A stretch of DNA of 48,983 nucleotides from Candidatus Tayloriibacteriota bacterium (GTDB taxonomy: Bacteria > Patescibacteriota > Minisyncoccia > Phycocordibacterales > PALSA-1337): contig JBPOID010000005.1 of assembly GCA_052034805.1 (NCBI GenBank), positions 1 to 48,983 of the forward strand, read 5' to 3'. The position numbers were made by a program, and so were the translations under genes. This document shows, piece by piece, positions 8,926-48,297 of this stretch (position 1 is the stretch's first letter; every line of letters starts with the position of its first letter). The notes beneath the pieces are model-generated. The model saw nothing but the letters and a program-made list of their open reading frames with translations, was not told the DNA's origin and made no database searches.

Positions 8926-8935
8926 TTGGTTTCCT

Positions 8936-9661
8936 TTATTGTTTTACCGATCTGAGCAGTCGTGTCATTGCCGGGGCGAAGTTACCTTGGTTCACCGGCG
9001 CAACACAGACGAGCTCTGTTCCCGAAAGATATGTTCGATTCACTTCGAGAAAGAATCGTATATGTTCGTCAGGTTCTGATGGTGGCACCGCGTCGATGCT
9101 GCCTGGGATAAGGCGCTGTGTCTCCTTTGAGAACATGATGAGTCCCCGATTGGGGTCATAATCTCTAGGATATTTAACCTGCCCGAATGCATCCATGACC
9201 TCCTTGTCGGTTTTTGAGACGTCCGCATCATACTTCGGTGCGAAATGCCTGAAAAAGAATGGCAGAATCTTGTAGGTCCGCCACCCCTTCGAGATCAGAA
9301 TATAATATATTTCCTGACCTAGAGAGGTATGCAGAGCCTTCATGAAGTAGCGCCCGATTTCAATACCGAAGCCAGTGCTACTCCTATATTCCGGAAGGAT
9401 TGTAGTATCCCCCGAAAACACAGCTTTCACTTTTCTTCCTTCGATAGGAAGATTGAGCATCATGAGCGTCGAAAAGCCCACTATCTCTCCATCATGAGTC
9501 TCCTTGCGGAGTAGCATGACAGCTTCTTTTTCTTCAAGGTCTCGGATGAAATCTTGACGACTCACACCGAGAAACTCGAGGGAAAGGAGACCGAACATGG
9601 TAGCCCTCTCAGAGGGCGTAAGCTCGGCAATCTGCTTGGTCTGACTGAATATCTTTGACAT
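8936..9661 (-). CDS. GNAT-like acyltransferase (family uncertain)
   Basis: The ORF track gives 8936..9748. I prefer ATG 9659-9661 (MSKIFSQ...) because of a perfect AAGGAGA SD 5 nt upstream. VFSGDTTILPEYRSSTGFGIEIGRYF resembles the GNAT motif A region. Confidence 0.6.
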   Translation of the reverse strand: MSKIFSQTKQIAELTPSERATMFGLLSLEFLGVSRQDFIRDLEEKEAVMLLRKETHDGEIVGFSTLMMLNLPIEGRKVKAVFSGDTTILPEYRSSTGFGIEIGRYFMKALHTSLGQEIYYILISKGWRTYKILPFFFRHFAPKYDADVSKTDKEVMDAFGQVKYPRDYDPNRGLIMFSKETQRLIPGSIDAVPPSEPDEHIRFFLEVNRTYLSGTELVCVAPVNQGNFAPAMTRLLRSVKQ

Positions 9662-9753
9662 AGGTTTCTCCTTGGTTGAGGTTTTCAAATAACAAATCTC
9701 TAGGGCTATTCCTACCACAAAAATGTGCTTTAGTAAATGTCCAAGCATAAAAA

Positions 9754-9789
9754 AGAGCCTTGCTGTATTTGTGGTACGAACAAGGCTCT
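9754..9789 (-). terminator. terminator/attenuator-like hairpin inside the biosynthetic cluster
   Basis: 9-bp stem agagccttg/caaggctct with an 18-nt loop, starting 1 nt after the stop at 9791. On the minus strand it is followed by a T-run (complement of the A-run at about 9749-9753). Confidence 0.45.
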
Positions 9790-9790
9790 G

Positions 9791-10897
9791 CTACAACGTT
9801 GCAACCTCGAGATGAGCAATCCTTCCGTTTTTGGGAAGCATAGCCTTTTCTCCTGGCCAATGAACGAGGTATATTCTACTTTTAAGCTCTCGCAACGCCA
9901 GACGGCGAGCGACAGTTGAAAGCTTGTTTTCCTCGGCTAGACCGACAAGGAGATAATCATGACCGCGACCCGACCAATCCCGGCACGCTTGGCTTATAAG
10001 CGATTCAAAGACTTCAGTATTGTCGTCTTCGGCACTCACAAACGAGGCGTGTACTGACCGAATCATTTCCCCGATGCTCGGTAGCATCGGAAAACCTCTC
10101 AATCGGGCAATCCCGTTATAGAAAGGCTTGACTGCTTTCATTTGTGCAGAGTAACCAGTGACGATTGTCTGCTTGAATGATTGTTGATCCCAGACACCGA
10201 GAGTTCCTACGACCTTGCCTCTCTTTTTGTAGACATACAAGTCCTTTTTAGAGAAATTCGGAAGTAGTCTAGTTCCACCAGATAAGTCATCCAGCGTGTA
10301 GGCAGGAGCAAACTGGTGACGACCATTCCATTCACTCAGACACTTATGCGCTTGTGGCAAAGTATCTTCGTTGCAGGATAGAACCTCGTGTCGTAACTTA
10401 CGTAACACCCTCTTTCGGATGGGTATCAAATAGGTTACGAACATTCCCACGGGAACATATGTTGGCATCCCTGCTCGTCCGCTTTCGAGGATTTGCTGGG
10501 CGTACCTGTTCTCGTCGAGAATCGTCGTGAAGTAGTAAGGCACTTTTCCATCGCCGTGAAGGCTTTGGAGAAACTTGTACCCTCTGACCAATGTCATACT
10601 ACTTCGAACTTCGGGAAGGAGTCTAAGACTGCTCAGGTAGCCAACGGTTTTTTCCTCACCGTCGACATATAACTTTCGAACACTTCGACCACCGATGCCG
10701 GTGATCGTGCCGTCATTCTGATCTTGATAGACCAGTGTTTGAGACCCCACGCTTCCAGCTTGTTCGGCTATGAAGAATGAGGGTTCGCGGCTGAACGCCA
10801 ACGATACATTACCAGGCATATGGGCTTTGCGGAGAACGGCACGCAATGCGCCGTCCTCCGCTTCGCCCGCTAGCTTGAAACCGAATCTGTTGTTCAT
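9791..10897 (-). CDS. hypothetical 368-aa protein, possibly a two-lobed acyltransferase (FemX/tandem-GNAT-like) fold
   Basis: ORF track; ATGA overlap with the upstream rSAM gene (10894-10897). The function is guessed from size and context only; no motif recognised. Confidence 0.7.
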   Translation of the reverse strand: MNNRFGFKLAGEAEDGALRAVLRKAHMPGNVSLAFSREPSFFIAEQAGSVGSQTLVYQDQNDGTITGIGGRSVRKLYVDGEEKTVGYLSSLRLLPEVRSSMTLVRGYKFLQSLHGDGKVPYYFTTILDENRYAQQILESGRAGMPTYVPVGMFVTYLIPIRKRVLRKLRHEVLSCNEDTLPQAHKCLSEWNGRHQFAPAYTLDDLSGGTRLLPNFSKKDLYVYKKRGKVVGTLGVWDQQSFKQTIVTGYSAQMKAVKPFYNGIARLRGFPMLPSIGEMIRSVHASFVSAEDDNTEVFESLISQACRDWSGRGHDYLLVGLAEENKLSTVARRLALRELKSRIYLVHWPGEKAMLPKNGRIAHLEVATL

Positions 10898-12306
10898 GCA
10901 AGCACACTTTCCCTTTGAACAACTGACACGGGTTGTGGCCGTTGAATGCCTTCTTCAGGCATCCAAATCGGCTGAGGCCGTTCAGGCAGATCGCCGAGTG
11001 GTAGTCTGTCCTTCTGTCCAATTTCCTTCCGGAGAAGGTAGTTGAGCCAAAAGTATCCGCCAGCCTTCGACAACGTAGAGCAGTTACCGACGATGTTTCC
11101 AGCTCTTTTTAGGATACCAGGGTAGCTGTAGAACTTCTTTCTGGCTGCAATGCAGCCTTCATGGAGTTCGTCGGCTGTCATGTTACGCGGTGTAAATGGC
11201 GCATCTCCAAAACGAAAACTTGGAGAGAGCCACCACGCTTCATCAGTCAGCCTGCTTTCGTTCTGGAACTGCTGGTACAGCGGAGTCCCAGGGAACGGGA
11301 TGAGCGGATTGAACGCCCCAATAAAGATCCCGAACTCGAGTGCCGCTTCCACAGTTCTTTGGATATCGTCAGCCGATTCTGAATCGTAGCCGAAGATAAA
11401 CGTGCCGTAGATGGCAATGCCATAGCTGTGCATTTTTTTGATCAACTCCTTGTAGTTTCCCAGTTTGGTGTTGAACTCCTTATTCATGAGCTTCAGTGTA
11501 TCCGCACGAAGGGATTCGAAGCCCACTAGCACTCCCAGACAGCCGCTCAAAGCCATTGCTTCAAGCAGTTCGTCATCTTTGGCCATGGTAAGCGATCCCT
11601 GACCCATCCACTTGACCTTAAGTGGAGCAATTTCCCTGCACAGCTGCTTTGCATGCTTGGGATTCCCAACAAAATTGTCTTCTACGAAGAAGGCAGTCTT
11701 GTGGCGTATTGATCCAACGTCCGCGACAACGCTGTCGATGGGACGTGGGTGGTAGTGCGAGGATGTCGCTGCAGCGATCGAACAAAAGCTGCAACAGAAT
11801 GGACAACCTCGTCCAGTCTCGACATTGCTCATAGGCAGATACTGCCGCGCTCCGAAGATCTCTCTCCGGGGCATGACATACTGGTATGGCTCCGTTTTAT
11901 TCTGGACGTAGCGGCGTTTGAGAGCACCTCGTTCTGCGTCACGGATTACTGTTTCCCAGAGAACTTCCGCGTAGCCGATAAGAATGCTGTCGGCATAGCG
12001 TTGCGTTTCATCAGGAAGCAGCATCACATGATAACCGCCGAGAATAGTTCTCACTCCTCTCTTGCGGTATTCAGCACAGATTTCATAGGCACGCTTGGCT
12101 GTATAGGTTTCGATGGTTACAGCGACAAGATCAGTAGGCTGATCGAAGTCGATTGTTTCCATCCGCTCGTCAAAGTAGGCGAGCTCCACATCGGCGGGCG
12201 TAAGGCCAGCCAACGTTGCGATGGTTAACGGCTCCATCTGCCATGTCCTCACGTATTCGGTCCGCGACTTGCGACCAACGTGAGGGGTAATCAATGTCAC
12301 TTTCAT
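10894..12306 (-). CDS. cobalamin-binding (class B) radical SAM enzyme, COG1032-like, copy 2
   Basis: The ORF track gives a start at 12390. I prefer ATG 12304-12306 (MKVTLITP...), which has an AAGGAG SD and an ATGA overlap with the upstream gene. The motif is GRGCPFCCSFC (CxxxCxxC), with an N-terminal B12-binding-like Rossmann segment and a DUF4070-like C-terminus. Confidence 0.85.
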   Translation of the reverse strand: MKVTLITPHVGRKSRTEYVRTWQMEPLTIATLAGLTPADVELAYFDERMETIDFDQPTDLVAVTIETYTAKRAYEICAEYRKRGVRTILGGYHVMLLPDETQRYADSILIGYAEVLWETVIRDAERGALKRRYVQNKTEPYQYVMPRREIFGARQYLPMSNVETGRGCPFCCSFCSIAAATSSHYHPRPIDSVVADVGSIRHKTAFFVEDNFVGNPKHAKQLCREIAPLKVKWMGQGSLTMAKDDELLEAMALSGCLGVLVGFESLRADTLKLMNKEFNTKLGNYKELIKKMHSYGIAIYGTFIFGYDSESADDIQRTVEAALEFGIFIGAFNPLIPFPGTPLYQQFQNESRLTDEAWWLSPSFRFGDAPFTPRNMTADELHEGCIAARKKFYSYPGILKRAGNIVGNCSTLSKAGGYFWLNYLLRKEIGQKDRLPLGDLPERPQPIWMPEEGIQRPQPVSVVQRESVLA

Positions 12307-13700
12307 ACTGTTACTCCTTCCAATGTTAAGGTTGTCGGTTGATGCGCTACGGAATAATCCGGAGCATTGAACCACGATGTCCCCTCGCAAGGGATAGGCA
12401 TAAATTTGGGATACTTCCTGGCGTACAGGTTATATCCGAGATTCGTACCGATCGATGTAGCGAGGATAAGCGGGTTTAGAGACGCGGCAGATGTCATTAT
12501 CCGCCGTGCGATTGAGGTCATCTTGTACGCCTCGCACCAGACCCTCTTTGTGCCTTCGTAAAGGCGCTCGGGAGTCATGCCTTTCGGTTGAAAGACAACG
12601 TGCTGGCCGTCATACCACTCCCAGTCCTTGCTGATGATGCGGTTTTCCTGATCAAGCTGGCGATACAGTGGTGTCCTCGGGAACGGAGTTGCGATCGCAA
12701 AGCGCGGCAAATCAATGCTGGCCTTGAAAACGAACTCAAGCGTCTCATCAAACACTCCCTCAGTATCTCCATCGATACCGAACACGAAACAGCCGTTAAT
12801 GGCGATCCCATGATCGTGGAGCATTTTAATGCGCCACAGGTTGTCGGCTGGTTTCTGCCAGTATTTTCCCATAGCCTTCAAAGACTTAGGGTTCTGCGAT
12901 TCCAGACCAATCAAGAGACCCCGACAGCCGCTTTTGGCAGCACGCTTCACTAACTGCGGGTTATCCGTGATGTTAAGAGTTGCCAGACCGCCCCAGTATT
13001 TACCGAGCGGAGCAAGCGCGTCACAGAGCTGGCCGAAGTATTCCTGATCAGAGGTAGGCGAGAGATCAATGAGAATGAACGTCTTCCCTGGAAATTCTGC
13101 AACTTCCCGAGCGACATCCAGCGGATCGCGTTGATACTGTTTGGGCCATGCCGTCGGCACGACGCAAAATGTACAGCGATAGACGCAACCACGAGTCGCC
13201 TGCGCAACATTCATGGTCGTGTATTTATCCTTTCTCAACAATTCCCGTCTCGGACGAGGATACCCGTCCATCGTGATTGGCTGCCTGTCATAGCGCTTCC
13301 TGAGCTTTCCTGCAACAAAGTCACGCAGGAGTTCAGGCCACACTTCTTCGGCATAACCATAGACAATGGCGTCTGCATGACGTTCAGCTTCTTCGGGACA
13401 CAGGGTGATATGAACTCCGCCAAGAACGACAGTGATGCCTCGATTCCGAAGAATTCGGCTATACCGGTATGCCTTGGGGGCGTTTCCAGTGATCACTGTG
13501 ATCCCGACGATGTCTGCATCAATAGTTTGAGGATCAAAATCCTCATTGCCTTCATCAACACATCGGACTGACGCATTGAGTTCCGGCGGGATGAGAGCGG
13601 CGAGAGTTGTCAGCGTAAGCGGTGCATACCGCAGACGCTGATCAAACGCGCCATCCTTTGCATAACGAGTCGACTGCGGCATAAGTAATACGATATTCAT
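12303..13700 (-). CDS. cobalamin-binding (class B) radical SAM enzyme, COG1032-like, copy 1
   Basis: ORF track; AAAGGAGA SD; RGCVYRCTFC (CxxxCxxC). Clearly paralogous to copy 2 (VVLGGVHITLCPEEAERHADAIVYGYAEEVW versus TILGGYHVMLLPDETQRYADSILIGYAEVLW). Confidence 0.85.
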   Translation of the reverse strand: MNIVLLMPQSTRYAKDGAFDQRLRYAPLTLTTLAALIPPELNASVRCVDEGNEDFDPQTIDADIVGITVITGNAPKAYRYSRILRNRGITVVLGGVHITLCPEEAERHADAIVYGYAEEVWPELLRDFVAGKLRKRYDRQPITMDGYPRPRRELLRKDKYTTMNVAQATRGCVYRCTFCVVPTAWPKQYQRDPLDVAREVAEFPGKTFILIDLSPTSDQEYFGQLCDALAPLGKYWGGLATLNITDNPQLVKRAAKSGCRGLLIGLESQNPKSLKAMGKYWQKPADNLWRIKMLHDHGIAINGCFVFGIDGDTEGVFDETLEFVFKASIDLPRFAIATPFPRTPLYRQLDQENRIISKDWEWYDGQHVVFQPKGMTPERLYEGTKRVWCEAYKMTSIARRIMTSAASLNPLILATSIGTNLGYNLYARKYPKFMPIPCEGTSWFNAPDYSVAHQPTTLTLEGVTV

Positions 13701-17267: not shown

Positions 17268-19943
17268 TTATCTAGGCAATGATGTTAACTCTCCAAAATC
17301 CTTTGGCCTATATTTCTCCCACTCCTCTTGCTTCACATACAGCATATGATATTTAATTCTATGCTGTTGCTCATTTGCATCATCGCACCACTGCGCTAAA
17401 CGCTTGATTTTCTCAATATCGTCGAGATCCTCCCGGCCTTTGGTTTCCACGATATACACGGTCTTCTCATCGGTCTTTATAATGAAATCTGGATAGTAGT
17501 ATGAGATTGAACCGCTTGCGTTCTTATAGTCGATTTTGAAATGAACCTCATAATAATTCTTGGCGAAAGAAATGACGTCGTCTGATCGCTCGAGAAAATC
17601 TGCGAATTCAAGTTCAAATTGGCTGTCTCCAACGATCTTGTTGAACACACTCTTTTTTGGTATCAGATACGATTTATCGTTAACCACGAACGGTCGGCTA
17701 CTGGAGAGTTTGATGTAATTCTTGAGCTCGGTATCTCCCACATCCTGGACGGTAAGGTCGTTAATCGCTTTTTTGAACGACTCAATGATCGTTTTCTTGG
17801 CTTCAGTTTCCGACAGGTTCCGAAGAATATTGGCGTCCATAAGGTCGACTGACTTATCGAAGAGATGGTGCTGAATGAAATCCTTTACCTTACCGAAGAG
17901 GATATCGTAGCAACCGAAAAGCCGGAGCTCACGCATGATCGACTGGACGAAAAAGCCCACGGCGCTCTGGTAGCTCGGTTCGATCGAGCTTTCGAGTACG
18001 GTTACATGGTGTACCTTACCGTCTATAACTTCCTGGAAGACAATTTCCTTCTTTTCTTCAGCGCTAAATTCCTTCAGTTTGACTTTTGCGTGCCTGAAGT
18101 CGTCAATATCAAGATCGTTTAGATTCTTATACTCACGCTGAATACGCGGAGTCAGTATCGGAAGTTCTATGTCTAATTTCTCGACATCCTTTTTCGGATT
18201 AGCTGAGTCAATTTCAATGACAATCGGAGTGATGGGATTCGAATTTCGATCCATCTTGCGCTTCTCAAGCTCGACGCCCTCTGCCTTGATGGACTCCACG
18301 AATTCCATGAAGGCTGGCGTACCGATAACACTCACATATTCCTCGATATCATCCCTGCCGAAGAACATACGGCGCAAACCTCGGCCGAGAGTTTGCTCCG
18401 GCAGTATATTTGAGGCGGCGGCATAAGCACGCAGACCGACGATCGTGGTCACATTTTTCACATCCCATCCTTCCTTGAGCATGAGCACCGAGACGATCAC
18501 CTTATACGGACTCTCGATGCTATCGATAGTATTAGCCTGTTCGCGTAGCCGCTTCAATTCCTCATCATTCTTGCCAGTCACCGTCTCGGAAATCTCACCG
18601 CTTCTGTTCGTGTGAATGGTCATTACGGCGCCCTTGAGCTCGGGATATGTCTTTTCGAGATATCCAGCCACGTCGTCACAGTTCTTGGTATCGTCGGTCA
18701 TTATGAAAAGGATTGACTTTTTTCCGGTCGGTTCAAGCTCTTTGTATGTCTTCCTCCACTCCTCTACACCGAGATTGATAAAGTCCTCATATTTCTCAGT
18801 AAAAAGCGAGCTCTGTTTTTCGACGAGTTTTGCTCGACTAGCCTGATCCGGCAGAACCGGATTCTTTACTACTCGCTGATGGATAGCCTCCACGAGAGGA
18901 TAGTCGGAAATGGTCTGCACGAATATGGAGCCATTGTTTCTCTTTGGCGTTGCGGTGACATCGATTTGAAGCGACAATTTCTTGCCCTTTTGCAGGAGCT
19001 TGTTATGAATATCTTGAATGGATTTGAACCATGCCATCTTGTCATCATGAATGTGGTGCGCCTCGTCGTTGATGACCACGAGCTCGTCAATGTCTCGCAC
19101 GATTTCTCCGAGGTCAACCATGGATTCATTCGTCTTTGTCACTGGCTTTGAGCCGAGGAAGTAATCGGATGTGTCCTCGTCATTAGCACTGGAATCGTTC
19201 ACATCACTCTCGAATACTCGATGAATATTGGTCAGGAATATGTTACCCGTATCAGATATCGTACCTACAGCGTCCTGGAGATGGAGTGTAATTTGGAAGT
19301 CATCCTGCCAATTCTGGCCTTGGTAGCCACTATCGGGCAGGATCGGATCCTGGTAGAAAATCTTCAAGCCCTCGAAATCGTTTTTGATGCGTTCGAGCAC
19401 GATGATATTCGGTGTGATAAGCAGGAAATTCTTCGACAAGCCTGAATTCTGTTCGTAGAGCTTGTGGAAATATGACCAAGCGACAAGCAGACTCATGACC
19501 TTCGTCTTTCCACTTCCGGTTGCCATCTTTATAACGAATCGGAGCCATTCTTCCACGAACATATTCGGGCTCAATCTGCCGAGGCTGTCATATTTGATGA
19601 GATCGTACTTATTCTCAACGCCGGCAACCTCGTAAAGCCATATTACTGTTTCAACGGCCTCTCGTTGAGCGAAATAATATCTAAATGGTACGGCTATGCC
19701 TTTGGAATCAAAGATGGTGTGAGGTTCAACAAACCACCAGTTAAGAAGTGCTTGCGATGTAACGCTTGCCCCCGCATACTTGTTATCACGCCACTCCTTT
19801 ACCTGCTTGCGGAGCTCTGGCACTAGTGGTGGAAGTAGCTTCTCATATCCATGCTCACGAAGAGCTTCGTCAGCCGGAAACCACCTTATGCTGGGATCAA
19901 GTATTTCAAATGGTGAGATTGGAAAGTCTTTATGAAGTGCCAT
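17268..19943 (-). CDS. res: type III restriction enzyme, Res subunit (SF2 helicase + PD-(D/E)xK nuclease)
   Basis: ORF track. MATGSGKT (motif I), NDEAHH (motif II), VTATP (III), LKEGWDV, and a C-terminal YYPDFII...YIVETKG nuclease motif. Starts 4 nt after the mod stop. Confidence 0.9.
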   Translation of the reverse strand: MALHKDFPISPFEILDPSIRWFPADEALREHGYEKLLPPLVPELRKQVKEWRDNKYAGASVTSQALLNWWFVEPHTIFDSKGIAVPFRYYFAQREAVETVIWLYEVAGVENKYDLIKYDSLGRLSPNMFVEEWLRFVIKMATGSGKTKVMSLLVAWSYFHKLYEQNSGLSKNFLLITPNIIVLERIKNDFEGLKIFYQDPILPDSGYQGQNWQDDFQITLHLQDAVGTISDTGNIFLTNIHRVFESDVNDSSANDEDTSDYFLGSKPVTKTNESMVDLGEIVRDIDELVVINDEAHHIHDDKMAWFKSIQDIHNKLLQKGKKLSLQIDVTATPKRNNGSIFVQTISDYPLVEAIHQRVVKNPVLPDQASRAKLVEKQSSLFTEKYEDFINLGVEEWRKTYKELEPTGKKSILFIMTDDTKNCDDVAGYLEKTYPELKGAVMTIHTNRSGEISETVTGKNDEELKRLREQANTIDSIESPYKVIVSVLMLKEGWDVKNVTTIVGLRAYAAASNILPEQTLGRGLRRMFFGRDDIEEYVSVIGTPAFMEFVESIKAEGVELEKRKMDRNSNPITPIVIEIDSANPKKDVEKLDIELPILTPRIQREYKNLNDLDIDDFRHAKVKLKEFSAEEKKEIVFQEVIDGKVHHVTVLESSIEPSYQSAVGFFVQSIMRELRLFGCYDILFGKVKDFIQHHLFDKSVDLMDANILRNLSETEAKKTIIESFKKAINDLTVQDVGDTELKNYIKLSSSRPFVVNDKSYLIPKKSVFNKIVGDSQFELEFADFLERSDDVISFAKNYYEVHFKIDYKNASGSISYYYPDFIIKTDEKTVYIVETKGREDLDDIEKIKRLAQWCDDANEQQHRIKYHMLYVKQEEWEKYRPKDFGELTSLPR

Positions 19944-19947
19944 AAAA

Positions 19948-22230
19948 TTATATTTTAATATCGATTACTCTGGTCGTATCATTGCCAAAAATGTCCACGA
20001 CCTTTACAGCAATCTTATGTTTCCCTTTTCCGACCTCTTTTATGGCCGAGGTTAGCTCAAGCACACGATTTTTCTTTGTGCGAAATGACTGCCATTCGTT
20101 TTCGAATATATAGCCACCTGTCCATACCTCCTTTTCCTCACCGGTCTTCTCATCAGTCACCCTTATGACTTCCTTCTTGCTCTCGAAGTCGAAATCCACC
20201 GCCCAGTAGTCCACCCAGTCACTCCATTTCTTCGTTAGGATCTCTCGCTCGATGATCTCAGTCTTCTTGTCCTTGGATAACTTGATAACCTGACCGTTCT
20301 CGATGACCACTTTGGCTCCGCCCGGCTTGAGTTTCTCCTCAATCTCTCCGGTATTATCTTGATTGTAGAAAACAGAGAAGTCGGTCAGATCTATTGCGAG
20401 TGTGCTTTTCTTGATGATCGGCTTTATATCGATATATGCCACATCATAGAATTTTACCTGGCCTTTCTCTACAGCCTTGCGGTCAAAAACTTCTCGAGGA
20501 ATGATTTTGAATTGAACATCGATGCCGTCTTTCTTCGCTTCCGAAAAATCTAGACCCATTTCGTAATCAAAGCCGAGCACATCGACTTTCGTTATTCCCT
20601 TCTGTTTCGCCTCGGCTATGATTTGATTTATGAAATCGGAAGCAACTGGCACATCTATGGGACCGACAGCAACGAGTCGGTCACGCTTCTTGCCGACGAA
20701 TGATTTGAAAGAATTCACCGGCTCAGCCTTATATGCCGATAGAATGAGTGACACAAATTCGTGTTCCTTCTGCTCTTTCTGTCTCTGGCGTTCTTCTTCA
20801 CGTAAGTCATTATTTACACCAACATAGTGCTCACGTTCATAACGACCAATATTCAGAATCTCAAAAGCTCGGAAATTCTTTCCGTCTAGCTTTAGTTCGC
20901 GCTGAACGTCTATCATACGCTTGCGAGAGGTATGTATTCCAAATCGTCCAATATCAGAGCCAATCCATTTTCTACCAAGCTTTTCTGCAACCGCTAGTGT
21001 TGTACCAGAACCACAAAAGAAATCTGCTACTAGGTCACCTTCATTCGAAGAAGATTTGATTATCCTCTCTAGAAGTTTTTCAGGCTTTTGAGTGGGGTAG
21101 TCTCCTTTCTCGACTCCTATATCTGTCCAAATGTTCTGTAGCTCGACACCAGATAGCTCATTTAGGTATTGCTTAATATTCGGCATACCGTTCTTTGACC
21201 ATGCAATGCGCCCGATCCTGTCGAGTTCTTCGAGAGCTTTCATCGTGTCTCCTTTTGCATCCTCGCTAATTTCTCCTAGAACATAGCCTGGAATTGCCCA
21301 GTGTCTCCCCTTGCCAATTTTGCCAGGATTTATTCCACGCCATTCCATTCCAGATTTACCTGTCGTTCTTCCAGGAGCTGTTAGTGGGCTTTCTCGATAC
21401 TTACCCTTTTTAGGATCCTCACCTCTGAACATAGTCTCTACATACTCATCATCGTACTCACTGTATTGCTGATTCCATATAGCGTCATCGGATTTTGTAA
21501 AAAATAGGATACTATCATTGATATTATTGTAGAACGAACTTCCGGCTCTTGCCGTCGTTCGTTTCCAGAATATCTCAGACCTATAAGCATTTTTCCCGAA
21601 GACTTCTTCAAGCACAATTCTTATAAAGCTGTTCAGTCTCCAATCGCAATGAACATAGATGCTTCCGTCTTCTGCAAGCAAATCATGAATAATTTTCAGG
21701 CGTTCATAGATCATCGCAATAAAACTGTCAGCTCCCTTACCCCAAGTATCGCGGTATGCCACCTCCTCGATCACCGACGGCTTCTTTGTAAAACTTTCTT
21801 CTTCGTCACCATCGCCTATCTTAATATCCATCGAAAAATCGGCACCGACGTCAAAAGGCGGATCTATATACACCAGCTTGAGACCGCCCTGTGCCTCGAT
21901 CTCTTTTCGTAGCTGACCATTTTTGAGCGATGAGAGTATGAGTTTGTTGTCGCCCCAGATCAACTTGTTCGTCCAGCCAGAAATCTGTCGGCCAGATGTG
22001 TCGAAGAGAGTATCCTGTAGCTCAATCTTTCCCTCGCTACGAGGCTCATCTATATGTTCAATCGTCTGGAACGGCAACACGCTGTTCGTGACCTCATTAG
22101 TTTTTCCATTCCACACTAACTCAACTTCACGATCATCTTTGAATAGTAAGAAGCGGTATTTATCCGGCAGTGGTTTATTCTGTTCGAGGAATTTTATTAT
22201 GTCTCGTTTTTCACCATCGGAAAGTTGCAT
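19948..22230 (-). CDS. mod: type III R-M DNA methyltransferase, Mod subunit (beta-class N6A/N4C)
   Basis: ORF track. VYIDPPF (motif IV) precedes [23 protein letters not shown] (motif I), which is the beta-class order. Confidence 0.9.
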
Positions 22231-22322: not shown

Positions 22323-24065
22323 TTAAATCCTTTTCTTATCCTTAAGCTTGTCAATGTAATCAATGAGATTTTTTATCTTATTCCATTTCATCACTTCATC
22401 TGTAATCTCGTTCGTATGCATGATCGGGTTGCGTATCGGATTAATCTCTTTTACATCAGAACAAAGCTCCTTTCGATATTTTTTCAGAGTCGGTTTTTTA
22501 GCATTTTTATTTGACCAAACATCAATTATACTTGCCAGACAATACAAGTCGGCATAATTGAGATAGCTTTCTTCTTTCACAATCTTACCTTTTAGCGCGT
22601 GTGTAGATTCGTCATCATTCCGACTCTTTCGAGTACCCTTTATTTTATCAGCAAGGTCTTTTTGGTCAGCATCTGACTGGTCAAATATGCTCTCGTCGAT
22701 ATTCTTAAACTTTATATATTCGCGGAATATGTTCTCAAGAATAAAGAGATCCTGATACACTGAGGTATTCTTGTATGATAGATTACGCAATTTGCTTTTT
22801 AGATCCTCCTTGGCAGCTTTGTCGATCAAGGAAGCATCCAACTTTTCTTCAAAATCCTTCTCTCGCCAATTCTTGCTATCTTCAAGGCGTCTTTGGTACT
22901 TGGGAAGCGATTCATCCTCTATATCGCCCTCATTTTTATGTTTTCGACGCCAAGGGTCCCAATCGGTTAGGACAGCTGTTTGGATTTTCCTCAGTTTTTT
23001 CAAGAGGGACTGATATAATGGGTCATCTTTTATGATTCCTTCTCGAGAACTCGTAAATCTGTCTATCTTCTCATCTTCCAACCCGTCTACGTGGACTTCG
23101 CCGTACAAATATTCCTCCGCCAACCTTTTGAGCGAGATTTCCTGAAACAGATCTTCCTGTCTCAATCTTCCGTTACAAAACAGGTTTATACTTGCCTTGA
23201 AATCACCCTCGGATCCTCTAAGAATAAGGTCCTTCGGAAACTTCACTGACGCAATGAACCCCCTAATTTCTATAGTTTTTCCATCAAATTCAAATGTATT
23301 GTCTTCAATGACCCTATGCTCGTCGAGATTCTCATAGAGTTCCAGCCTATCCTTATCTTCTTTTCCCAAAAACCAGATGAACTGTGTGTTATCATCAAGT
23401 TCCTTCAGGTCCTTTCGCGTGATCGGTGTTCCATTGACGACGATTTTGAATTTGTCACCCTTTTTAAGACTGAATATAAAATTAAACTGAGTAGCAAGAT
23501 ATTTCCTTATGATACTCTCGCTGTTCAAGTTGATTTTTATCTTTTCGAATATTATTCTCGTTCCTGATGTTTTTTTGCTCCTAGCGAACCTGCGCTTGTC
23601 GGTGACAGTCAATACATCCAGGCTGTAATTTCCTTCGCTCCTGATTTTTTCATCAAGCTCAGGATTATTGATTCTTCCTCCAGTGAGAGCGCTCGCTTTC
23701 TTTTTAGCGATTATTGTGACTTTTTCGGAAACAGAAAGCATCGCCAGTTTTCCAATACCCTTACGGCCAATGACGTTTCTTTTGGACTTGTTATTTCTAT
23801 CAAGCCTTCTTGAATAGCCGACCTTGAGGAACTTATTCTGGAAATCGAGGTCATCCATTCCTTTGCCGTTGTCATCGACGATCAGGCTTTTCTTATCCAT
23901 CTTGATATCAACCTCAGTCGCCTCGGCATCCCACGAATTTGAAACTGCTTCAGCGATGACAGTGGCAAAACTCCTATAGAGACCTCTGCCCAGATGGTTC
24001 AGTATGTCCAGAGAGAAAGCAAATTCAAAGCGCTTATCTTCTGTTTTGGAAATTTTCTTTGACAT
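22323..24065 (-). CDS. GHKL (HATPase_c_3 / MORC-like) ATPase fused to a C-terminal HEPN-like domain
   Basis: ORF track. Bergerat motifs EAVSNSWDA, DDNGKGM and GRKGIGKLA lie at the N-terminus. The C-terminus has INPIRNPIMHTNEI (R-N-x-x-x-H, the HEPN Rx4-6H motif). The start overlaps the dcm 3' end by 32 nt. Confidence 0.8.
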   Translation of the reverse strand: MSKKISKTEDKRFEFAFSLDILNHLGRGLYRSFATVIAEAVSNSWDAEATEVDIKMDKKSLIVDDNGKGMDDLDFQNKFLKVGYSRRLDRNNKSKRNVIGRKGIGKLAMLSVSEKVTIIAKKKASALTGGRINNPELDEKIRSEGNYSLDVLTVTDKRRFARSKKTSGTRIIFEKIKINLNSESIIRKYLATQFNFIFSLKKGDKFKIVVNGTPITRKDLKELDDNTQFIWFLGKEDKDRLELYENLDEHRVIEDNTFEFDGKTIEIRGFIASVKFPKDLILRGSEGDFKASINLFCNGRLRQEDLFQEISLKRLAEEYLYGEVHVDGLEDEKIDRFTSSREGIIKDDPLYQSLLKKLRKIQTAVLTDWDPWRRKHKNEGDIEDESLPKYQRRLEDSKNWREKDFEEKLDASLIDKAAKEDLKSKLRNLSYKNTSVYQDLFILENIFREYIKFKNIDESIFDQSDADQKDLADKIKGTRKSRNDDESTHALKGKIVKEESYLNYADLYCLASIIDVWSNKNAKKPTLKKYRKELCSDVKEINPIRNPIMHTNEITDEVMKWNKIKNLIDYIDKLKDKKRI

Positions 24066-25116
24066 GTTGTTTTATGCTCTTGCCGATCACCGAACCAATT
24101 CGTACAGGAACAGCATTACCAATAAATTTGGCGACATCTCTAGTTATGATCGGCTTTCCTGGCTCAACGAACCTATAGTTTTTGGGAAATGTTTGAAATA
24201 CAGCTGCTTCGCGCAAGCTAATAGCCCTATCCTGAGAAGGATGCCCGAAGCGACCATTACCCAGTCCTGTACACTGAGTAGTCATAGTAGGTGCAGGTTC
24301 ATTCCAACGCATCCTACCATAAACGGTACGGCGATAGGTATGTCCCGATTTTTTCCTATGGCAGGGTAGTCTCAAATCATTGCTCCAGCTCATGGAATTT
24401 CCCCCATCATGTGGAGTGGACCTGATTCTCTGCATGTTTTTTTCACTTAATTTCCTGGCTTTATGCATCGGATCATTGATGCTGGATTCTCCATCTTTTA
24501 TCGGCTCGAGATCCTTGATGACGTCCCTGACGGTCACCTTTTTATCAATATGAGTACGTTTTATCAATTCAATATCTCCAAAACGGGACGCAAGAAGCAC
24601 AAGTCGGCGCCTTCTTTGAGGCACACCATAATCAGAAACATTGACGATCTCGTATTTATATTTATATCCATTCCTTTCAAGTGTACTAATAAATTCGGCG
24701 AAGACTGGATATTTACCTTTGTCTGCTAGACCACTTACATTTTCCATAGACACTATATCAGGCTTGATCTCGTCTATAAGCTGCGCAAATTTCCCGAGCG
24801 GCTCAAGCTGTTTCCTTGTTATCGTTTTCAAATTCAGCTTGGAAAAAGGCTGGCATGGCGCGCAACCTGCAAGCACACGTATGGTACCCTTGTCGTGACC
24901 GAATAATTCTTCTACTTCCTTACCGGAAACATCCAAGATGTTCTTATCGATAAATTTTGCACGATTGTTGTATTCGTAACCGTATTTACAACTGGAGTCG
25001 TTATCAATTCCCGCTACTACATCCATACCCTCTTTGATCAGACCATGACTAAGCCCCCCTATTCCGCAGAACAGATCTACAACTTTTATTTTTGAATTAG
25101 AGGATCCAATCTTCAT
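24034..25116 (-). CDS. dcm: DNA (cytosine-5) methyltransferase
   Basis: ORF track. DLFCGIGG (I), GCAPCQPFS (IV), MENVSGL (VI), PQRRRRL (VIII), GNAVPV (X). Confidence 0.95.
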   Translation of the reverse strand: MKIGSSNSKIKVVDLFCGIGGLSHGLIKEGMDVVAGIDNDSSCKYGYEYNNRAKFIDKNILDVSGKEVEELFGHDKGTIRVLAGCAPCQPFSKLNLKTITRKQLEPLGKFAQLIDEIKPDIVSMENVSGLADKGKYPVFAEFISTLERNGYKYKYEIVNVSDYGVPQRRRRLVLLASRFGDIELIKRTHIDKKVTVRDVIKDLEPIKDGESSINDPMHKARKLSEKNMQRIRSTPHDGGNSMSWSNDLRLPCHRKKSGHTYRRTVYGRMRWNEPAPTMTTQCTGLGNGRFGHPSQDRAISLREAAVFQTFPKNYRFVEPGKPIITRDVAKFIGNAVPVRIGSVIGKSIKQHVKENFQNRR

Positions 25117-25427: not shown

Positions 25428-26483
25428 CTAGACCGCAAACTGCACATTCAGTGCTGCTCTCGTCTGCGGACCGATATTGTTCGGCGACGATGCGATCTTG
25501 TGTGCTTGTTGATATTTTGCATTTGCGGCTGCAGTCTTTGGACCAAAAATGCCAAGCTGATCAGCAGGGATAGGTGCGAGGAAGCCGAGTATCATGTATG
25601 CAATCTGTGCAAACTTCACACCGTCATTAATATCACCAAGAGCTAAATTCTTTTCCCATCTGTAGTGGAATGCTTTTGGCGATGGGAGTGCTTTGAGAAA
25701 ATTTTGAATGTCAGGCGGAATCTCTGCTATAGCCCATTGCTCAATGATGTAGGGTGACCAAATCTTCTGATTATATTTTGTCTGACCCTTATTGGCCCAC
25801 CTTTCACTCCATTCATTCTGTAGATTGTTATAAATATCATCTTCCCAACCGAAAGGAGTCATCTGATGACCTGAAACTATTACTTTTGGAATGCGGAGCG
25901 GATCTATGTCCCTATCCTCCCATGATGGAGTCCATAATTCGTTGCCAATTTCAAAGAGTGCCGAGACTGCACCATAAAGATATATAGCTTCTCGTGTTCT
26001 TTGGAAATCAATAGGAACTGAAACATAACCGGGGATCTTGTACATGGCAGCTTCCGCAAAAACCTCGGGTGTAAGTTTACAATCACACCGATATTCAACG
26101 ACAGTAAGTGAAGTATCATTGGGAAGAGTTGCCGTGGTTGCGCATCCATAAAGAACTGCGAGTTTGAAGATGAGACGTGGATAAGTGCCACCCGTAACTT
26201 TATCCTGAAGATCAAATCGCTTTGCCAAAATATCGAGAAATCGGGGAGAGAAATCAATCATCTTCCCTGTTTTCCTGAACCAATATAGTTTCAGAAGATC
26301 CACTACACTGTGGGAGACGCAAGCTGGCACGAGTGCTTGCATCATAGGAGTCGCTAGTGTCGTCTTGTACGTAGGAGGAAGTGGTATCTGTGCAGGGAGT
26401 ATTCCTGCAACTGCCGACGCAACGTACTCATCTCGATAATCGGGCGGAGAAATAATAGCACCTGTTGAAAATTGTTCATTCAT
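25428..26483 (-). CDS. endolysin: papain-like (C1-type) cysteine peptidase with a C-terminal PG_binding_1 domain
   Basis: ORF track. PDYRD, QALVPACVSHS (Cys), VSGHQM (His) and NEWSERWANKGQ (compare papain NSWG..WG..GY). The C-terminus FGPKTAAANAKYQQAHKI...GPQTRAALN is a peptidoglycan-binding repeat. Confidence 0.7.
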   Translation of the reverse strand: MNEQFSTGAIISPPDYRDEYVASAVAGILPAQIPLPPTYKTTLATPMMQALVPACVSHSVVDLLKLYWFRKTGKMIDFSPRFLDILAKRFDLQDKVTGGTYPRLIFKLAVLYGCATTATLPNDTSLTVVEYRCDCKLTPEVFAEAAMYKIPGYVSVPIDFQRTREAIYLYGAVSALFEIGNELWTPSWEDRDIDPLRIPKVIVSGHQMTPFGWEDDIYNNLQNEWSERWANKGQTKYNQKIWSPYIIEQWAIAEIPPDIQNFLKALPSPKAFHYRWEKNLALGDINDGVKFAQIAYMILGFLAPIPADQLGIFGPKTAAANAKYQQAHKIASSPNNIGPQTRAALNVQFAV

Positions 26484-26682: not shown

Positions 26683-27804
26683 TTAATATAAGACATTCGA
26701 TTGAACCTCATAACTTGTACCAGTTGCTCCTGCTGTTCCCGCACTGCCGTTTGCCGATCCCGATCCGCCACTGCTGCCTGCACTTCCGGCCGACCCACCG
26801 GTGAGGACATAGCTTCCTGTCCATGTCTTTGCGGTGTAGACAACGATTGAAGCTCCGCCTGATCCGCCTCCCCCTCCACCACCGCCTCCACCGGCTGATC
26901 CCTGACCTCCCGATGACCCAGTACCACCAGTTCCACCATTGCCTCCGTTTCCACCAACCGATCTTATGGTAAATGTCCCAGCCCATATCTTGGCAACGAT
27001 AAATACTAGGCCACCAGAGGCTCCTGCACCCCCACCGCCGCCTCCACCTCCATTATTTCCACCAGCTGAGTTACCTCCTCCGCCTCCGCCGCCTGATCCT
27101 GACCCTGCCGAGCCATCATATGAGGATTGTGATCCGTTCAAAAGCAAATCGTTACCGAGAATTAGTATGTGCGGAAGGCGTCCCGGTGTTAATGATTTTG
27201 ACGCAGTTCCGCCACTGCTTCCTGATCCTCCGCCAGCTGCGCTTCCATTGTTGTATGAGGAACCATGTCCGCCCGCACCTCCTCCAACACCATTCACCCC
27301 CACTGATTTAGTTGAGCTAATTCCTGCTCCCCCGTCTCCACCTGTATTGGGAGCACCATTACCTCCATTCGCGCCATTTTGTCCTGAAGTATTCGAAAAC
27401 CTGCATCCAGAAACTGCGGCACCGCCGCCTCCACCGCCACCGCCTGAAACTGCTCCGCCACCACTACTTCCGTTCCCGCCATTGCTCCCGTTATTTCCGT
27501 CAGGATATTTAATTGCACCGGTTCCCGAGAGAGTTCCCTTCACGCGGATCATGAATCCACCAGTTGTGAGTGTGTCATTGACTGTAAGATTGTTATAAAA
27601 CATATCTCGAGTAAGGGTTGTCGGGGAAGAAATGGTGACATTGCCATCTGATCCATCACCAGTTCCACCGAATGAATCGTTAATGAAAGAGCCATCGAGT
27701 GCACCATTCGAATTTAGTTTTGGAACTTTTCCCGCATCACCTGCCCCTGCTGTTGATGCGATGAAGTCTGAGGCTAACGCTGTTTGTCCGGCTTGAATTG
27801 ACAT
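26683..27804 (-). CDS. glycine-rich tail fibre protein
   Basis: ORF track. The N-terminal 45 aa are paralogous to the adjacent fibre. Long GGGGGG/GSGG tracts follow. Confidence 0.7.
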   Translation of the reverse strand: MSIQAGQTALASDFIASTAGAGDAGKVPKLNSNGALDGSFINDSFGGTGDGSDGNVTISSPTTLTRDMFYNNLTVNDTLTTGGFMIRVKGTLSGTGAIKYPDGNNGSNGGNGSSGGGAVSGGGGGGGGAAVSGCRFSNTSGQNGANGGNGAPNTGGDGGAGISSTKSVGVNGVGGGAGGHGSSYNNGSAAGGGSGSSGGTASKSLTPGRLPHILILGNDLLLNGSQSSYDGSAGSGSGGGGGGGNSAGGNNGGGGGGGGAGASGGLVFIVAKIWAGTFTIRSVGGNGGNGGTGGTGSSGGQGSAGGGGGGGGGGSGGASIVVYTAKTWTGSYVLTGGSAGSAGSSGGSGSANGSAGTAGATGTSYEVQSNVLY

Positions 27805-27805
27805 G

Positions 27806-28651
27806 TTATGTTCGTATTAAAAAGTTCACAACAAGATATGGAGGCATATTGTTATGGGCAGCATTGCTACCTGCTGAGCCCACATTTGCACTGTCGGTAT
27901 ATGTATTACCGCTTGTCGACCATGCAAGACCAGGACAGGAACCTGAACAGGCGAGCGATCCACTACCTGAATGGTCTATAATGTAGTGACTGTGACTCGC
28001 CAATTCAGCAACACTAAGTGTATGAGTTTTTTCTCCAGTATAAGTATTAGGAGTATCGAGTGTATCAAAATTTGCATCGTTTACATCAAAGCCAAATACT
28101 GTTTTGCCTTTTAAATTCGGAAGGTTAAATGTTGTTGATCCATCACCTACACCAGAATTAAAAACCCTCCAAGTATGTACACCAGATTGCGAACCTGATG
28201 TATTCACTGCCGCACCACCTCGAGAAGTTGAAACTCGGAAATCATTTGCACTGAGTCCTGCGGAGATAACATAATAATCAGTACCTGTTGCAAGACCTGT
28301 AGGTAGAGCTCCTGTTGTCGTCAAACGTATTTTGTCACCAGCAACAAGAACATGGCCATTAGACGTAAAAACGGCAGGCGATGCAATCGTAACTGTAAAA
28401 TTTGCTGACGGGCAAAGAACAGCAAAAAGTGCAGCATATGTCGCTCTAGAAACAGCCTGACCGTTACATAGAAGCCAACCATTAGAAAATGTACGACTCA
28501 TACTCGGAACAATCATGCCTGTGAGTCCGAGAAAACTATTATCAAGGGCACCGTTAGCATCTAGCTTCGGTACTTTTCCAGCATCTCCACTACCGGCCGA
28601 TGAAGCCACGAAGTCCGATGCTAATGCTGTTTGTCCTGCTGTAATTGACAT
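27806..28651 (-). CDS. tail fibre protein with phage tail-collar domain
   Basis: ORF track. NGWLLCNGQAVSRATYAALFAVL (tail-collar motif) and a C-terminal ...TGEKTHTLSVAELASHSH...AHNNMPPYLVVNFLI. Confidence 0.75.
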   Translation of the reverse strand: MSITAGQTALASDFVASSAGSGDAGKVPKLDANGALDNSFLGLTGMIVPSMSRTFSNGWLLCNGQAVSRATYAALFAVLCPSANFTVTIASPAVFTSNGHVLVAGDKIRLTTTGALPTGLATGTDYYVISAGLSANDFRVSTSRGGAAVNTSGSQSGVHTWRVFNSGVGDGSTTFNLPNLKGKTVFGFDVNDANFDTLDTPNTYTGEKTHTLSVAELASHSHYIIDHSGSGSLACSGSCPGLAWSTSGNTYTDSANVGSAGSNAAHNNMPPYLVVNFLIRT

Positions 28652-30568: not shown

Positions 30569-31924
30569 TTATGCTCTTATACCTCCCAGATTGATCTGGT
30601 TTTTAATAATGCGGGCAAGCTCATTTCCGAATTCTTCAGCCACCTCCGTTGTGGTATAGAAGTCGCCGTTAAGGTTAATGGTTAACCCTCCACCTTGGCC
30701 GAGTTTGCTTAAAGGAATAATGGCTTCGGGACCTGCTTCACCCACAAGACCGAGAGTAGGGCCGGTGACGATGCCACCGTCTGCAAACTTCGACACAACT
30801 GTCTTTACGGCGTTCACAGCCCCTTTTATGGGAGCACTTACGGCTGATACCACGCTGTTATATGCACTCTGAATCGAGGCTATGGCACTCTTGATCTTCT
30901 CTATGCCCGCGTTGAATAGATCAACAATTCCATTCCATATCGAGGTAAAGAAATCTTTGATACCATTCCATGCTTCGACAAATACACCCTTGATGTTTTC
31001 CCATTGTGTTTTCCAGAGCGTATAGAAAAAGATAATCACCGCACCTATGGCGGCGATCGCAGCAATGATGAGACCTAAGGGACCTAGAAGTGTGAGAGCA
31101 GCTGCGGCAGCAACGATAAGTCCCGCAACAAAGAGTGCGGTCAGAAGACTTCCAACAACAATCAGAAGAGTACGGTTGTCCTCAAGAAATTTATTTATTC
31201 CACCTTGTGCTCCAATCCAGTTTTGTATTCCTTTTGTAACCATTTCAATTGCCGGTGCAAAAAGACTTCCCAACGCTTCAGCACCTTCACCTCCAAGCTG
31301 TCGCGTAATATCGAGCTGACCTTTCAGAGTTTCTGAATATGCGGCAGCCTGACCATGAACAGTTTTCATGATGGCAGCAAGGATAGTTTCCTTAGATGCG
31401 TGATCATCGACTTCGATTCCGAATTGTTTCAGAAGTCGTGCATTACCTTGAAAGGCAAGAATCAAAGCCTGGGTCGACTCCTCGAGTCCAATACCCTTAT
31501 AACGTGCCAGATCCATAGCTGCAGTAAATGCTTCGAAGGCAAAAGGGCCGTCATTAGTTGCCTGAAGAAGTTTTGCAATCGAGACCGCAGCTTCTTCATT
31601 GTCAAAGCCGAATTTATTCAATGCTTCATCTGCAACCGCAAGTATCTGGCCTCTCAAAGCTTGCAGGTTTGGAGGAAGGGTTTTGAGAATTGCATCAAAG
31701 CGAGTCATCTGTACTTCTGCCTCAGCAAAGGCACCGATCGCACTTTTCAATATTGCCCCTGCGCCAATCGTCTGAAGCACTCCCGCCAAAGCACCGACCT
31801 TGTCGCCTGCAAAACCAAACTGCCCACCAAGATCTGATAGGCTATTACTCATACTTCGGATTGCAGTACTTGCTTCATCCCGAAGTTGAACCAATATTTG
31901 TAGTTTGCTTATTGACTCTGCCAT
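30569..31924 (-). CDS. tail tape measure protein (short)
   Basis: ORF track. Alpha-helical Ala/Leu-rich N-half and central hydrophobic helices (LIVVGSLLTALFVAGLIVAAAAALTLLGPLGLIIAAIAAIGAVIIFF). Lies after the G/GT chaperone genes. Confidence 0.75.
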   Translation of the reverse strand: MAESISKLQILVQLRDEASTAIRSMSNSLSDLGGQFGFAGDKVGALAGVLQTIGAGAILKSAIGAFAEAEVQMTRFDAILKTLPPNLQALRGQILAVADEALNKFGFDNEEAAVSIAKLLQATNDGPFAFEAFTAAMDLARYKGIGLEESTQALILAFQGNARLLKQFGIEVDDHASKETILAAIMKTVHGQAAAYSETLKGQLDITRQLGGEGAEALGSLFAPAIEMVTKGIQNWIGAQGGINKFLEDNRTLLIVVGSLLTALFVAGLIVAAAAALTLLGPLGLIIAAIAAIGAVIIFFYTLWKTQWENIKGVFVEAWNGIKDFFTSIWNGIVDLFNAGIEKIKSAIASIQSAYNSVVSAVSAPIKGAVNAVKTVVSKFADGGIVTGPTLGLVGEAGPEAIIPLSKLGQGGGLTINLNGDFYTTTEVAEEFGNELARIIKNQINLGGIRA

Positions 31925-48221: not shown

Positions 48222-48297
48222 TATGGTTATTGACTTCCCATGAGGTTTTTGAGATGATGGATGTGTTGAAGATCCTATCTCTCCTCGCGGGGAGATT

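Follow-up and report, generated by a model that had tools for sequence, protein, structure and literature searches.

Type II restriction-modification (R-M) systems of the BbrUII/HgiDII family are two-gene units in which a restriction enzyme of the paraMORC3 type is paired with a 5-methylcytosine (m5C) methylase. M.HgiDII and M.BbrUII are characterised m5C methylases, and the HgiDII site is GTCGAC (PMC5867850). Iyer et al. (2008) described paraMORC3 as a GHKL+S5 body with a C-terminal restriction endonuclease (RE)-fold nuclease, found in R-M contexts and often with cytosine methylases (PMC2292703). Later, Anantharaman et al. (2013) predicted fusions of paraMORC to HEPN domains of the Ymh family in R-M neighbourhoods, and proposed for them a role like that of PrrC and RloC (PMC3710099). 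Here, a related gene pair is described from a Candidatus Tayloriibacteriota bacterium. It lies in a DNA stretch of 48,983 nucleotides (GenBank assembly GCA_052034805.1, contig JBPOID010000005.1, positions 1 to 48,983), which is called the window in this study. The first gene encodes a Dcm-type C5-cytosine DNA methyltransferase, and the second encodes a GHKL+S5 ATPase body of the paraMORC3 type joined to a HEPN-like C-terminal domain (called the effector in this study). With a probability of about one half, the pair is a self-contained, methylation-gated R-M-like defence module of the abortive-infection type that derives from a BbrUII/HgiDII (paraMORC3) Type II system.

Both genes are on the minus strand, as are all of their features described below. 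The dcm gene (24,034-25,116; 360 amino acids [aa]) comes first, and the effector gene (22,323-24,065, stop codon included; 580 aa) follows it. The 3′ end of dcm and the 5′ end of the effector gene overlap by 32 nucleotides (nt) (24,034-24,065), which probably leads to translational coupling. The ATG at 24,065 is the sole usable start codon upstream of the ATPase motifs. Consistent with this start, the alignments of effector homologs begin at residue 3 to 13. Scans for promoters and terminators gave chance-level results only. An original prediction, made from the sequence alone, had reported these two open reading frames (ORFs) with the 32-nt overlap and a methylase carrying motifs I, IV, VI, VIII, and X. 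The ORF check bore out the former, and the motifs were located one by one: FCGIGG (I) at residue 16, PCQPFS (IV) at 87, MENV (VI) at 124, QRRRR (VIII) at 167, and GNAVP (X) at 333. Thus, the catalytic set is complete. The methylase covers the full PF00145 profile in the Pfam scan (E = 1.8e-58) and scores 135 bits against TIGR00675 in the NCBIfam scan.

The effector assignment is based on the ORF list, profile hidden Markov model (HMM) searches, and structure models. Its residues 1-125 (23,691-24,065) are a GHKL (Bergerat-fold) ATPase domain with intact ATP-binding motifs (HATPase_c_3, E = 7.8e-21). The original prediction was right in calling this domain from EAVSNSWDA, DDNGKGM, and GRKGIGKLA, which are all present, but it overlooked the identity of the whole body with the BbrUII/HgiDII family. 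The motif positions are invariant or nearly so among homologs; E39, N43, D46, D65, G100-K106, and T169 do not vary in 68 of them. A middle, S5/transducer-like domain follows at residues ~126-345 (23,031-23,690), supported by a confident mixed alpha/beta model and the NF050001 match, and then a long helical linker at residues ~346-388 (22,902-23,030), where the full-length model has a helix at 349-375. This full-length AlphaFold model has a mean predicted local distance difference test (pLDDT) score of 78 and consists of the GHKL domain, a mixed alpha/beta middle part to about residue 345, and then helices. A Foldseek search with this model returned GHKL proteins only; its N-terminal part matches the ATPase modules of TRAP1/Hsp90 and of MORC2, MORC3, and MORC4 (E about 1e-11 to 1e-13).

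The best NCBIfam match of the effector is NF050001, 'BbrUII/HgiDII family restriction enzyme' (E = 4e-87). Effector residues 13-409 align with profile positions 1-398 of 659, and nothing aligns beyond position 398. Since the match stops there, the usual nuclease of the family is missing from the effector. Full-length NF050001 members, such as the 'ParaMORC3' of phage PhiR44_1 and database representatives of 640-680 aa, score 607-777 bits over positions 1-659. In contrast, the effector scores 293 bits against a curated cutoff of 550, and with the RE-fold nuclease part unmatched, its assignment as a true family member was rejected. Similarly, the Type II restriction enzyme models of PADLOC match residues ~10-390 only. 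By these profile comparisons, the N-terminal ~400 aa of the effector represents the body found in BbrUII/HgiDII (paraMORC3), a genuine family of Type II restriction enzymes, and the protein is best described as a BbrUII/HgiDII-type enzyme whose DNase has been exchanged. The absence of PD-(D/E)xK and HNH motifs, noted from the sequence in the original prediction, held in the Pfam scans, where no such family matched. More broadly, no recognisable DNase domain was found in the Pfam, PADLOC, and NCBIfam scans, and GIY-YIG and phospholipase D (PLD) signatures were likewise not seen.

Is the pairing with a methylase common among relatives of the effector? I scanned genomes, one per species, with peptide patterns taken from the ATPase domain; since only these patterns were used, the scan was blind to the neighbouring genes. 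It gave 392 relatives, and the best 80 were examined. In 78 of the 80 loci, a dcm gene lies directly upstream on the same strand, while the other two have a dcm gene within 0.5 kb downstream on the other strand. Thus, the linkage to the methylase is nearly universal. The two genes overlap in 70 of the 73 complete pairs, most often by 4 nt (28 of 73). No gene other than dcm is conserved in the neighbourhood. The hosts include Patescibacteria (Saccharibacteria and Paceibacterota), Bacteroidota, Planctomycetota, Chloroflexota, Nitrospirota, Acidobacteriota, Verrucomicrobiota, Pseudomonadota, Bifidobacterium, and others. In IMG/VR, ten viral contigs carry the effector gene, nine of them with an overlapping dcm directly upstream. 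The pair was also found on pBM153, a conjugative plasmid of Paracoccus tegillarcae, where the effector is annotated merely as an "ATP-binding protein". This 20-kb plasmid (NZ_CP025411.1; locus L083) has, at 579-2398 and ~1.5 kb from the pair, another, different dcm gene, which is paired with a gene for a very-short-patch repair endonuclease.

The HEPN-like C-terminal domain comprises residues 389-580 (~190 aa; 22,326-22,901), supported by an AlphaFold2 (AF2) model of the domain and by matches to PDC-M34B and HEPN_Swt1. HEPN domains have an R-x4-6-H motif, in which N, D, or H usually follows the R, and an upstream acidic residue typically in E-x3-[KR]; the acidic motif lies in helix 2, an insert separates helices 2 and 3, and R-x4-6-H lies where helix 3 ends, running into the next loop (PMC3710099). 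In the effector, E444-N-I-F-R448 (22,722-22,736), in the second long helix, is of the E-x3-[KR] form, and its E and R are invariant in two alignments (A3 and A4). At the end of the third core helix, R545-N-P-I-M-H550 (22,416-22,433) has the R-x4-H form of the catalytic motif of HEPN RNases. This RNPIMH, already pointed out in the original prediction, was confirmed at residues 545-550. In a 35-sequence alignment (A4) reaching down to 17% identity to the window sequence, E444, R448, R545, and H550 alone are invariant within the domain, while Y437, N445, L510, M549, and T555 are nearly invariant. Thus, the R and H that a HEPN reading calls for are kept at this distance, with N or D in the second position. 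RNxxMH is present in 120 of 120 close homologs, and R-[ND]-x3-H in 77 of the 80 genome loci and in all ten viral loci; the three exceptions are a contig end, a truncated ORF, and a locus with another C-terminus (L012, see below). Since it is kept in the close homologs, in 77 of the 80 loci, and in the distant alignment, RNPIMH is not a chance motif.

The domain-only AF2 model, built from a 59-sequence alignment, is wholly helical, with a pLDDT of 91 and a predicted template modelling (pTM) score of 0.82. Its helices span residues 389-412, 416-453 (with E444 and R448), an insert hairpin of 466-488 and 507-520, 534-549 (ending at R545..H550), and 563-579. The helix order and the places of the motifs agree with the published HEPN layout at the level of secondary structure. 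HEPN_Swt1 gave weak Pfam matches in 10 of 59 diverse members (best E = 6.8e-4), and it is the only recurrent and functionally informative family among them apart from GHKL families. One of the 59 members matches the KEN/RNase L domain (2e-4). The strongest named match of the domain is PDC-M34B of PADLOC (E = 1.3e-9 to 1.5e-10), found in 24 of 35 diverse members (best E = 1.5e-10), and sporadic weak PADLOC matches point to Cas13a, RT-HEPN, Csx1, and CARF-HEPN (two models). Searches for homologs with word-indexed methods, using the domain or its profile, found same-family fragments only and no annotated intermediates, and the PHROGs scan of the C-terminal alignment gave nothing meaningful. The HMM evidence for HEPN, weak as it is, points one way, and the domain is quite likely a HEPN domain.

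A second motif of similar appearance, RNDDESTH (R-N-x5-H; residues 482-489, 22,599-22,622), lies in the effector as well. All close homologs (53% identity or more) share its R and H, whereas the divergent subfamily lacks them. It was therefore rejected as the catalytic motif and is a subfamily-specific feature of the insert between the core helices.

Some HEPN domains are inactive binders (PMC3710099). Thus, the C-terminal domain might serve for nucleic-acid binding or dimerisation without catalysis, and the protein might work with an unlinked nuclease or act as a methylation-linked chromosome or repair factor that is no toxin, in the manner of MutL and MORC, which are GHKL+S5 proteins of repair and chromatin. 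The conservation described above is hard to reconcile with this, since all four catalytic-type residues are strictly invariant over a wide divergence. The scattered occurrence in unrelated phyla, on prophages, plasmids, and viral contigs, also speaks against a factor of this kind, as does the neighbourhood, in which no other gene is conserved and even the R-M genes next to the pair in the window (see below) are not kept. A non-catalytic domain is most improbable.

The C-terminal domain is exchanged among relatives of the effector. In a Spirochaetia metagenome-assembled genome (OZ244590.1, 4946-7728; locus L012), the ATPase body is 51% identical to that of the window and the gene overlaps its dcm by 4 nt. 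Instead of the HEPN-like domain, its C-terminus matches the TIR-domain abortive-infection protein SpbK (PDB 9phb, E = 7e-10). The same Dcm-coupled body with such a TIR domain was also found in the representatives P0197, P0204, P0232, and P0239. In a census of database representatives with a complete body, 55 have a HEPN-like form, 4 a TIR-like form, and about 12 a full nuclease form. In a rough neighbour-joining tree of the body, which has no support values, the nuclease forms make one clade and the HEPN forms a large sister radiation, with the TIR forms nested inside the latter at several places. The variant with Dcm and GHKL-TIR seems to have emerged more than once inside this HEPN-type radiation, at several points. 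HEPN and TIR domains are typical abortive-infection effectors. Since one ATPase body carries exchangeable DNase, RNase-type, and TIR outputs together with the same kind of methylase, the C-terminal domain is taken as the effector part of the protein; this exchange is the strongest argument for that view. It also suggests that the effector need not act on DNA.

A further possibility is conventional restriction. The C-terminal domain would then be a new DNA nuclease, either outside HEPN or with a HEPN-like fold acting on DNA, and the pair would form an ordinary Type II R-M system that cuts at unmethylated sites. In its favour, homologs of both genes make up a real Type II system, R-M systems typically have the methylase first, the PADLOC restriction-enzyme models match the N-terminal part, and the structure search did not confirm a HEPN fold. 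The domain itself fits this possibility poorly: PD-(D/E)xK, HNH, GIY-YIG, and PLD signatures are all lacking, and its invariant residues are exactly the HEPN set. HEPN chemistry uses the 2′-OH of RNA, which DNA lacks. Moreover, the domain alternates on the same body with TIR, which is not a site-specific DNase. An ordinary restriction system with a new nuclease is decidedly unlikely.

What does the methylase recognise? The window Dcm shares 48% identity over its full length, including the target-recognition region, with the Dcm that partners the classical paraMORC3 enzyme in phage PhiR44_1. Among 74 loci, residues 185-285, the variable region that normally sets the specificity, are as conserved as the core (53% versus 52% mean pairwise identity). 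Since the target-recognition region is as conserved as the catalytic core, the alignment suggests one target sequence common to the whole Dcm family. In the homologous pairs, the pairwise identities of Dcm and effector are correlated (Pearson 0.67, Mantel p = 0.001). GTCGAC, the HgiDII/BbrUII site, occurs 10 times in the window against 9.5 expected and is thus not avoided, which is uninformative because the host would methylate its own DNA.

The proposed methylation-gated module might work as follows. The methylase would mark the DNA of its own cell at one conserved target sequence. The effector would retain the GHKL+S5 ATPase body of its ancestor, in which the PD-(D/E)xK DNA nuclease would have been swapped for a metal-independent RNase of the HEPN type. 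GHKL+S5 bodies in such proteins dimerise on ATP and clamp nucleic acid, and HEPN RNases generally act as dimers. The body may thus engage DNA without the methyl mark, for example incoming phage or plasmid DNA, and the ATP-driven dimerisation would join two HEPN domains into a composite active site. RNA (transcripts, tRNA, or rRNA) would then be cut, and growth arrest or cell death would stop the infection, while the DNA of the invader would not be cut. The analysis shows the domain architecture, the conservation of catalytic-type residues, a tight and widespread methylase linkage, the descent of the two genes from the same stock as a genuine R-M system, and the effector exchange; the RNase activity, the trigger, the substrate, and the outcome are inferred. 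The more specific picture of an R-M system whose restriction arm spares DNA, with a GHKL clamp that senses unmarked DNA and passes the signal to a HEPN RNase (TIR in the sister lineages) for abortive infection, is put forward tentatively, as somewhat short of an even chance.

Several findings weigh against the module as proposed here. Its main weakness is that no methyl-sensitive DNA-reading element was identified in the effector. Ordinary Type II enzymes usually read the sequence in the nuclease domain, which is the very part that is missing here. The HEPN assignment has weak points as well: in the window effector, the Pfam match to HEPN_Swt1 has E = 0.01 and 16.5 bits against a cutoff of 27.5, and the motif region has a pLDDT below 50 in the full-length model. 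When the C-terminal model was compared with PDB and BFVD by Foldseek, no match fell below E = 1, and HepT at rank 9 (E = 7.9) was the sole HEPN entry. PDB sequences, searched with a profile of the C-terminal alignment, yielded two chance-level matches and no HEPN protein. Dcm and effector subfamilies are not strictly paired (Spearman 0.28; loci L040, L066, and L070); a single common Dcm target would explain possible recombination between the subfamilies. Finally, no experimental study of any family member was found in the literature.

The lack of an identified DNA reader also fits another possibility, in which the methylase guards a toxin, in the way that the EcoprrI R-M enzyme keeps the PrrC anticodon nuclease latent. 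The methylase protein or its activity might restrain a GHKL-HEPN toxin, and unmethylated DNA as such would not be the trigger. The RNase would then be freed when a phage blocks the methylase, drains S-adenosylmethionine, or turns off host expression, and loss of the module would kill the cell, as in toxin-antitoxin addiction. The overlap and the fixed gene order suggest co-translation and possibly a complex, and the loose pairing of the subfamilies fits generic control at the level of protein or activity. An analogy of paraMORC-HEPN fusions to PrrC/RloC has also been drawn (PMC3710099). On the other hand, the methylase keeps all its catalytic motifs and its target-recognition region from phylum to phylum, which points to selection on site-specific DNA methylation beyond a protein-protein contact. 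Furthermore, the ancestral BbrUII/HgiDII is a true methylation-sensitive restriction system. I regard a guarded toxin as unlikely, and the methylation-gated module is kept as the preferred reading.

How does the pair differ from the known systems? It shares with the BbrUII/HgiDII (paraMORC3) systems a homologous GHKL+S5 body, a homologous Dcm, and the two-gene unit. However, these enzymes have their own C-terminal RE-fold nuclease of ~260 aa (profile positions ~399-659), whereas the window effector has the helical HEPN-like domain of ~190 aa in its place. In the P2-like coliphage PhiR44_1, the homolog of 652 aa, annotated as "ParaMORC3", adjoins a dcm gene. These two phage genes are convergent, while those of the window overlap with the methylase first. 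The paraMORC-Ymh fusions resemble the effector in having a GHKL paraMORC N-terminus, a HEPN C-terminus, and an R-M gene context. An assignment to this type was rejected, since neither PF09509 (Pfam, E ≤ 10) nor TIGR02391 (NCBIfam, E ≤ 0.1) matched and the family was not recurrent among the 59 members. The main text of the 2013 paper (PMC3710099) has no Dcm-specific pairing, no census, and no relation to HgiDII-type enzymes.

GHKL-Shedu VcSduA (Shedu type I-D) is experimentally anti-phage and needs both its ATPase and its nuclease residues (PMC12137116, PMC10441436). Like the window effector, it has a body of GHKL and middle domains, annotated as paraMORC3, that controls a C-terminal effector. 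In contrast, its effector is a DUF4263 DNase of the PD-(D/E)xK type that acts alone without a methylase. No DUF4263 match was found in the Pfam and PADLOC scans, and an assignment to Shedu was rejected. The PrrC and RloC anticodon nucleases also have an NTPase head and a C-terminal HEPN RNase, and they are tied to R-M as a suicidal second line of defence. However, their head is an ABC-type ATPase and not GHKL, PrrC is linked to Type I R-M and not to a single Dcm, and no sequence relationship of the effector to PrrC/RloC was found. A restriction-type system derived from McrBC likewise has a HEPN RNase as its sole recognisable nuclease, but it has no modification gene and its ATPase is unrelated to that of the effector. 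PDC-M34B, which the C-terminal domain matches, is itself a standalone candidate protein of ~190 aa. The PDC candidates were discovered inside loci of BREX, DISARM, and Type I R-M. PDC-M34A had no match among the four neighbouring window proteins scanned, and only the B-like domain, fused to the ATPase, is present. In an exhaustive profile search (460 clusters at 50% identity), the HEPN-like part was found essentially only in fusion to the GHKL+S5 ATPase body.

The original prediction had held that a two-gene module of this kind was experimentally uncharacterised, and the literature indeed yielded no such characterisation. It overlooked that paraMORC-HEPN fusions had been predicted computationally (PMC3710099). 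As for its interpretation, the conservation of the motif and the linkage to the methylase stood firm, while RNA cleavage and methylation sensing are inferred here as they were there. The family of Dcm and GHKL-HEPN pairs is real, widespread, unannotated, and readily testable, but it was conceptually anticipated. As a system, the pair goes unrecognised by Pfam, NCBIfam, and PADLOC, and by current resources for annotation and defence finding. R-M and abortive infection are usually treated as separate layers of immunity. Couplings between them have long been predicted from comparative genomics, as with PrrC-EcoprrI and HEPN domains in R-M operons, and few are compact enough to dissect. This family is a minimal two-gene case with a clear Type II ancestor, a constant ATPase body, and an exchanged output domain, and its cultured carriers (the Paracoccus plasmid and the chromosome of Bacteroides sp. 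KG123) make direct testing possible. If the RNase reading is true, self-marking by methylation can gate an effector that does not act on DNA, and the step from DNase to RNase to TIR on one body would form a natural evolutionary series that connects classical restriction with cell-suicide immunity. An "orphan" Dcm next to an "ATP-binding protein" would then have to be reread in hundreds of genomes, including the small genomes of Patescibacteria, in which the family is common.

A Type III-like R-M pair, complete with Res (891 aa) and Mod (760 aa), lies directly downstream of the effector gene on the minus strand (17,268-22,230; HMM assignment). The Mod protein has an N6_N4_Mtase domain and matches the PADLOC model MTase_III (E = 6e-114), while the Res protein has a ResIII helicase and a C-terminal RE_endonuc domain and matches a BPTD_3080 family below the cutoff. 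The Type III genes were rejected as a part of the module, since relatives lie nearby in only a few of the 80 loci. Because the Type III pair is not conserved beside Dcm and GHKL-HEPN elsewhere, the two systems of the window are independent and together make up a small defence island.

To the right, a siphovirus-like prophage occupies 25,428-48,983. It encodes a Sak4-like protein (47,076-48,374), a ParB-methylase fusion, a large terminase subunit (41,223-42,686), a portal protein fused to a head-morphogenesis domain (38,401-40,596), a tape-measure-like protein (30,569-31,924), a tail fibre or collar protein (27,806-28,651), a holin-sized ORF, and a putative lysin. To the left of 17 kb, the genes look cellular (an MFS transporter, an Lnb_N protein, B12-radical SAM enzymes, and a GH3-family enzyme). 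Thus, the dcm gene, the effector gene, and the Type III mod and res genes sit between the cellular and prophage regions and are co-oriented with the phage late genes. Prophage cargo usually sits in such an edge, co-oriented position. No tRNA or boundary repeat was found within the window that would mark a prophage end near 17-25 kb. This mobile, defence-type context, namely the prophage edge next to a Type III R-M pair, the conjugative plasmid, and the viral contigs, supports the reading of the pair as a defence module.

Some further features of the window were noted. The ParB-methylase fusion (44,338-45,648, minus strand) joins a ParB-like N-terminal domain to a DNA methyltransferase (phrog_498, E = 1.5e-120) and is a phage-borne orphan methylase. 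Since it adds to the others, the element carries at least three DNA methylases. Between the tail fibre gene and the holin-sized ORF, a 373-aa protein (26,683-27,804, minus strand) abounds in glycine runs (GGGGGG and GSGGxG) and has no PHROG or Pfam match; the opposite strand has a long proline-rich ORF that is probably a compositional artefact. A 351-aa protein (25,428-26,483, minus strand) is encoded downstream of the holin-like ORF of 62 aa. It has a weak C-terminal peptidoglycan-binding match (E = 0.0014) and no PHROG match, and it may be an endolysin with an unrecognised catalytic domain. In the cellular region, the run of genes at 7255-13,700 (minus strand) encodes a GH3-family adenylating enzyme (556 aa), two ORFs without family matches, and two B12-binding radical SAM proteins, and may be a small biosynthetic cluster. 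Finally, the G+C content falls sharply to 22.6% at 1001-2000, compared with 34-51% elsewhere in the window.

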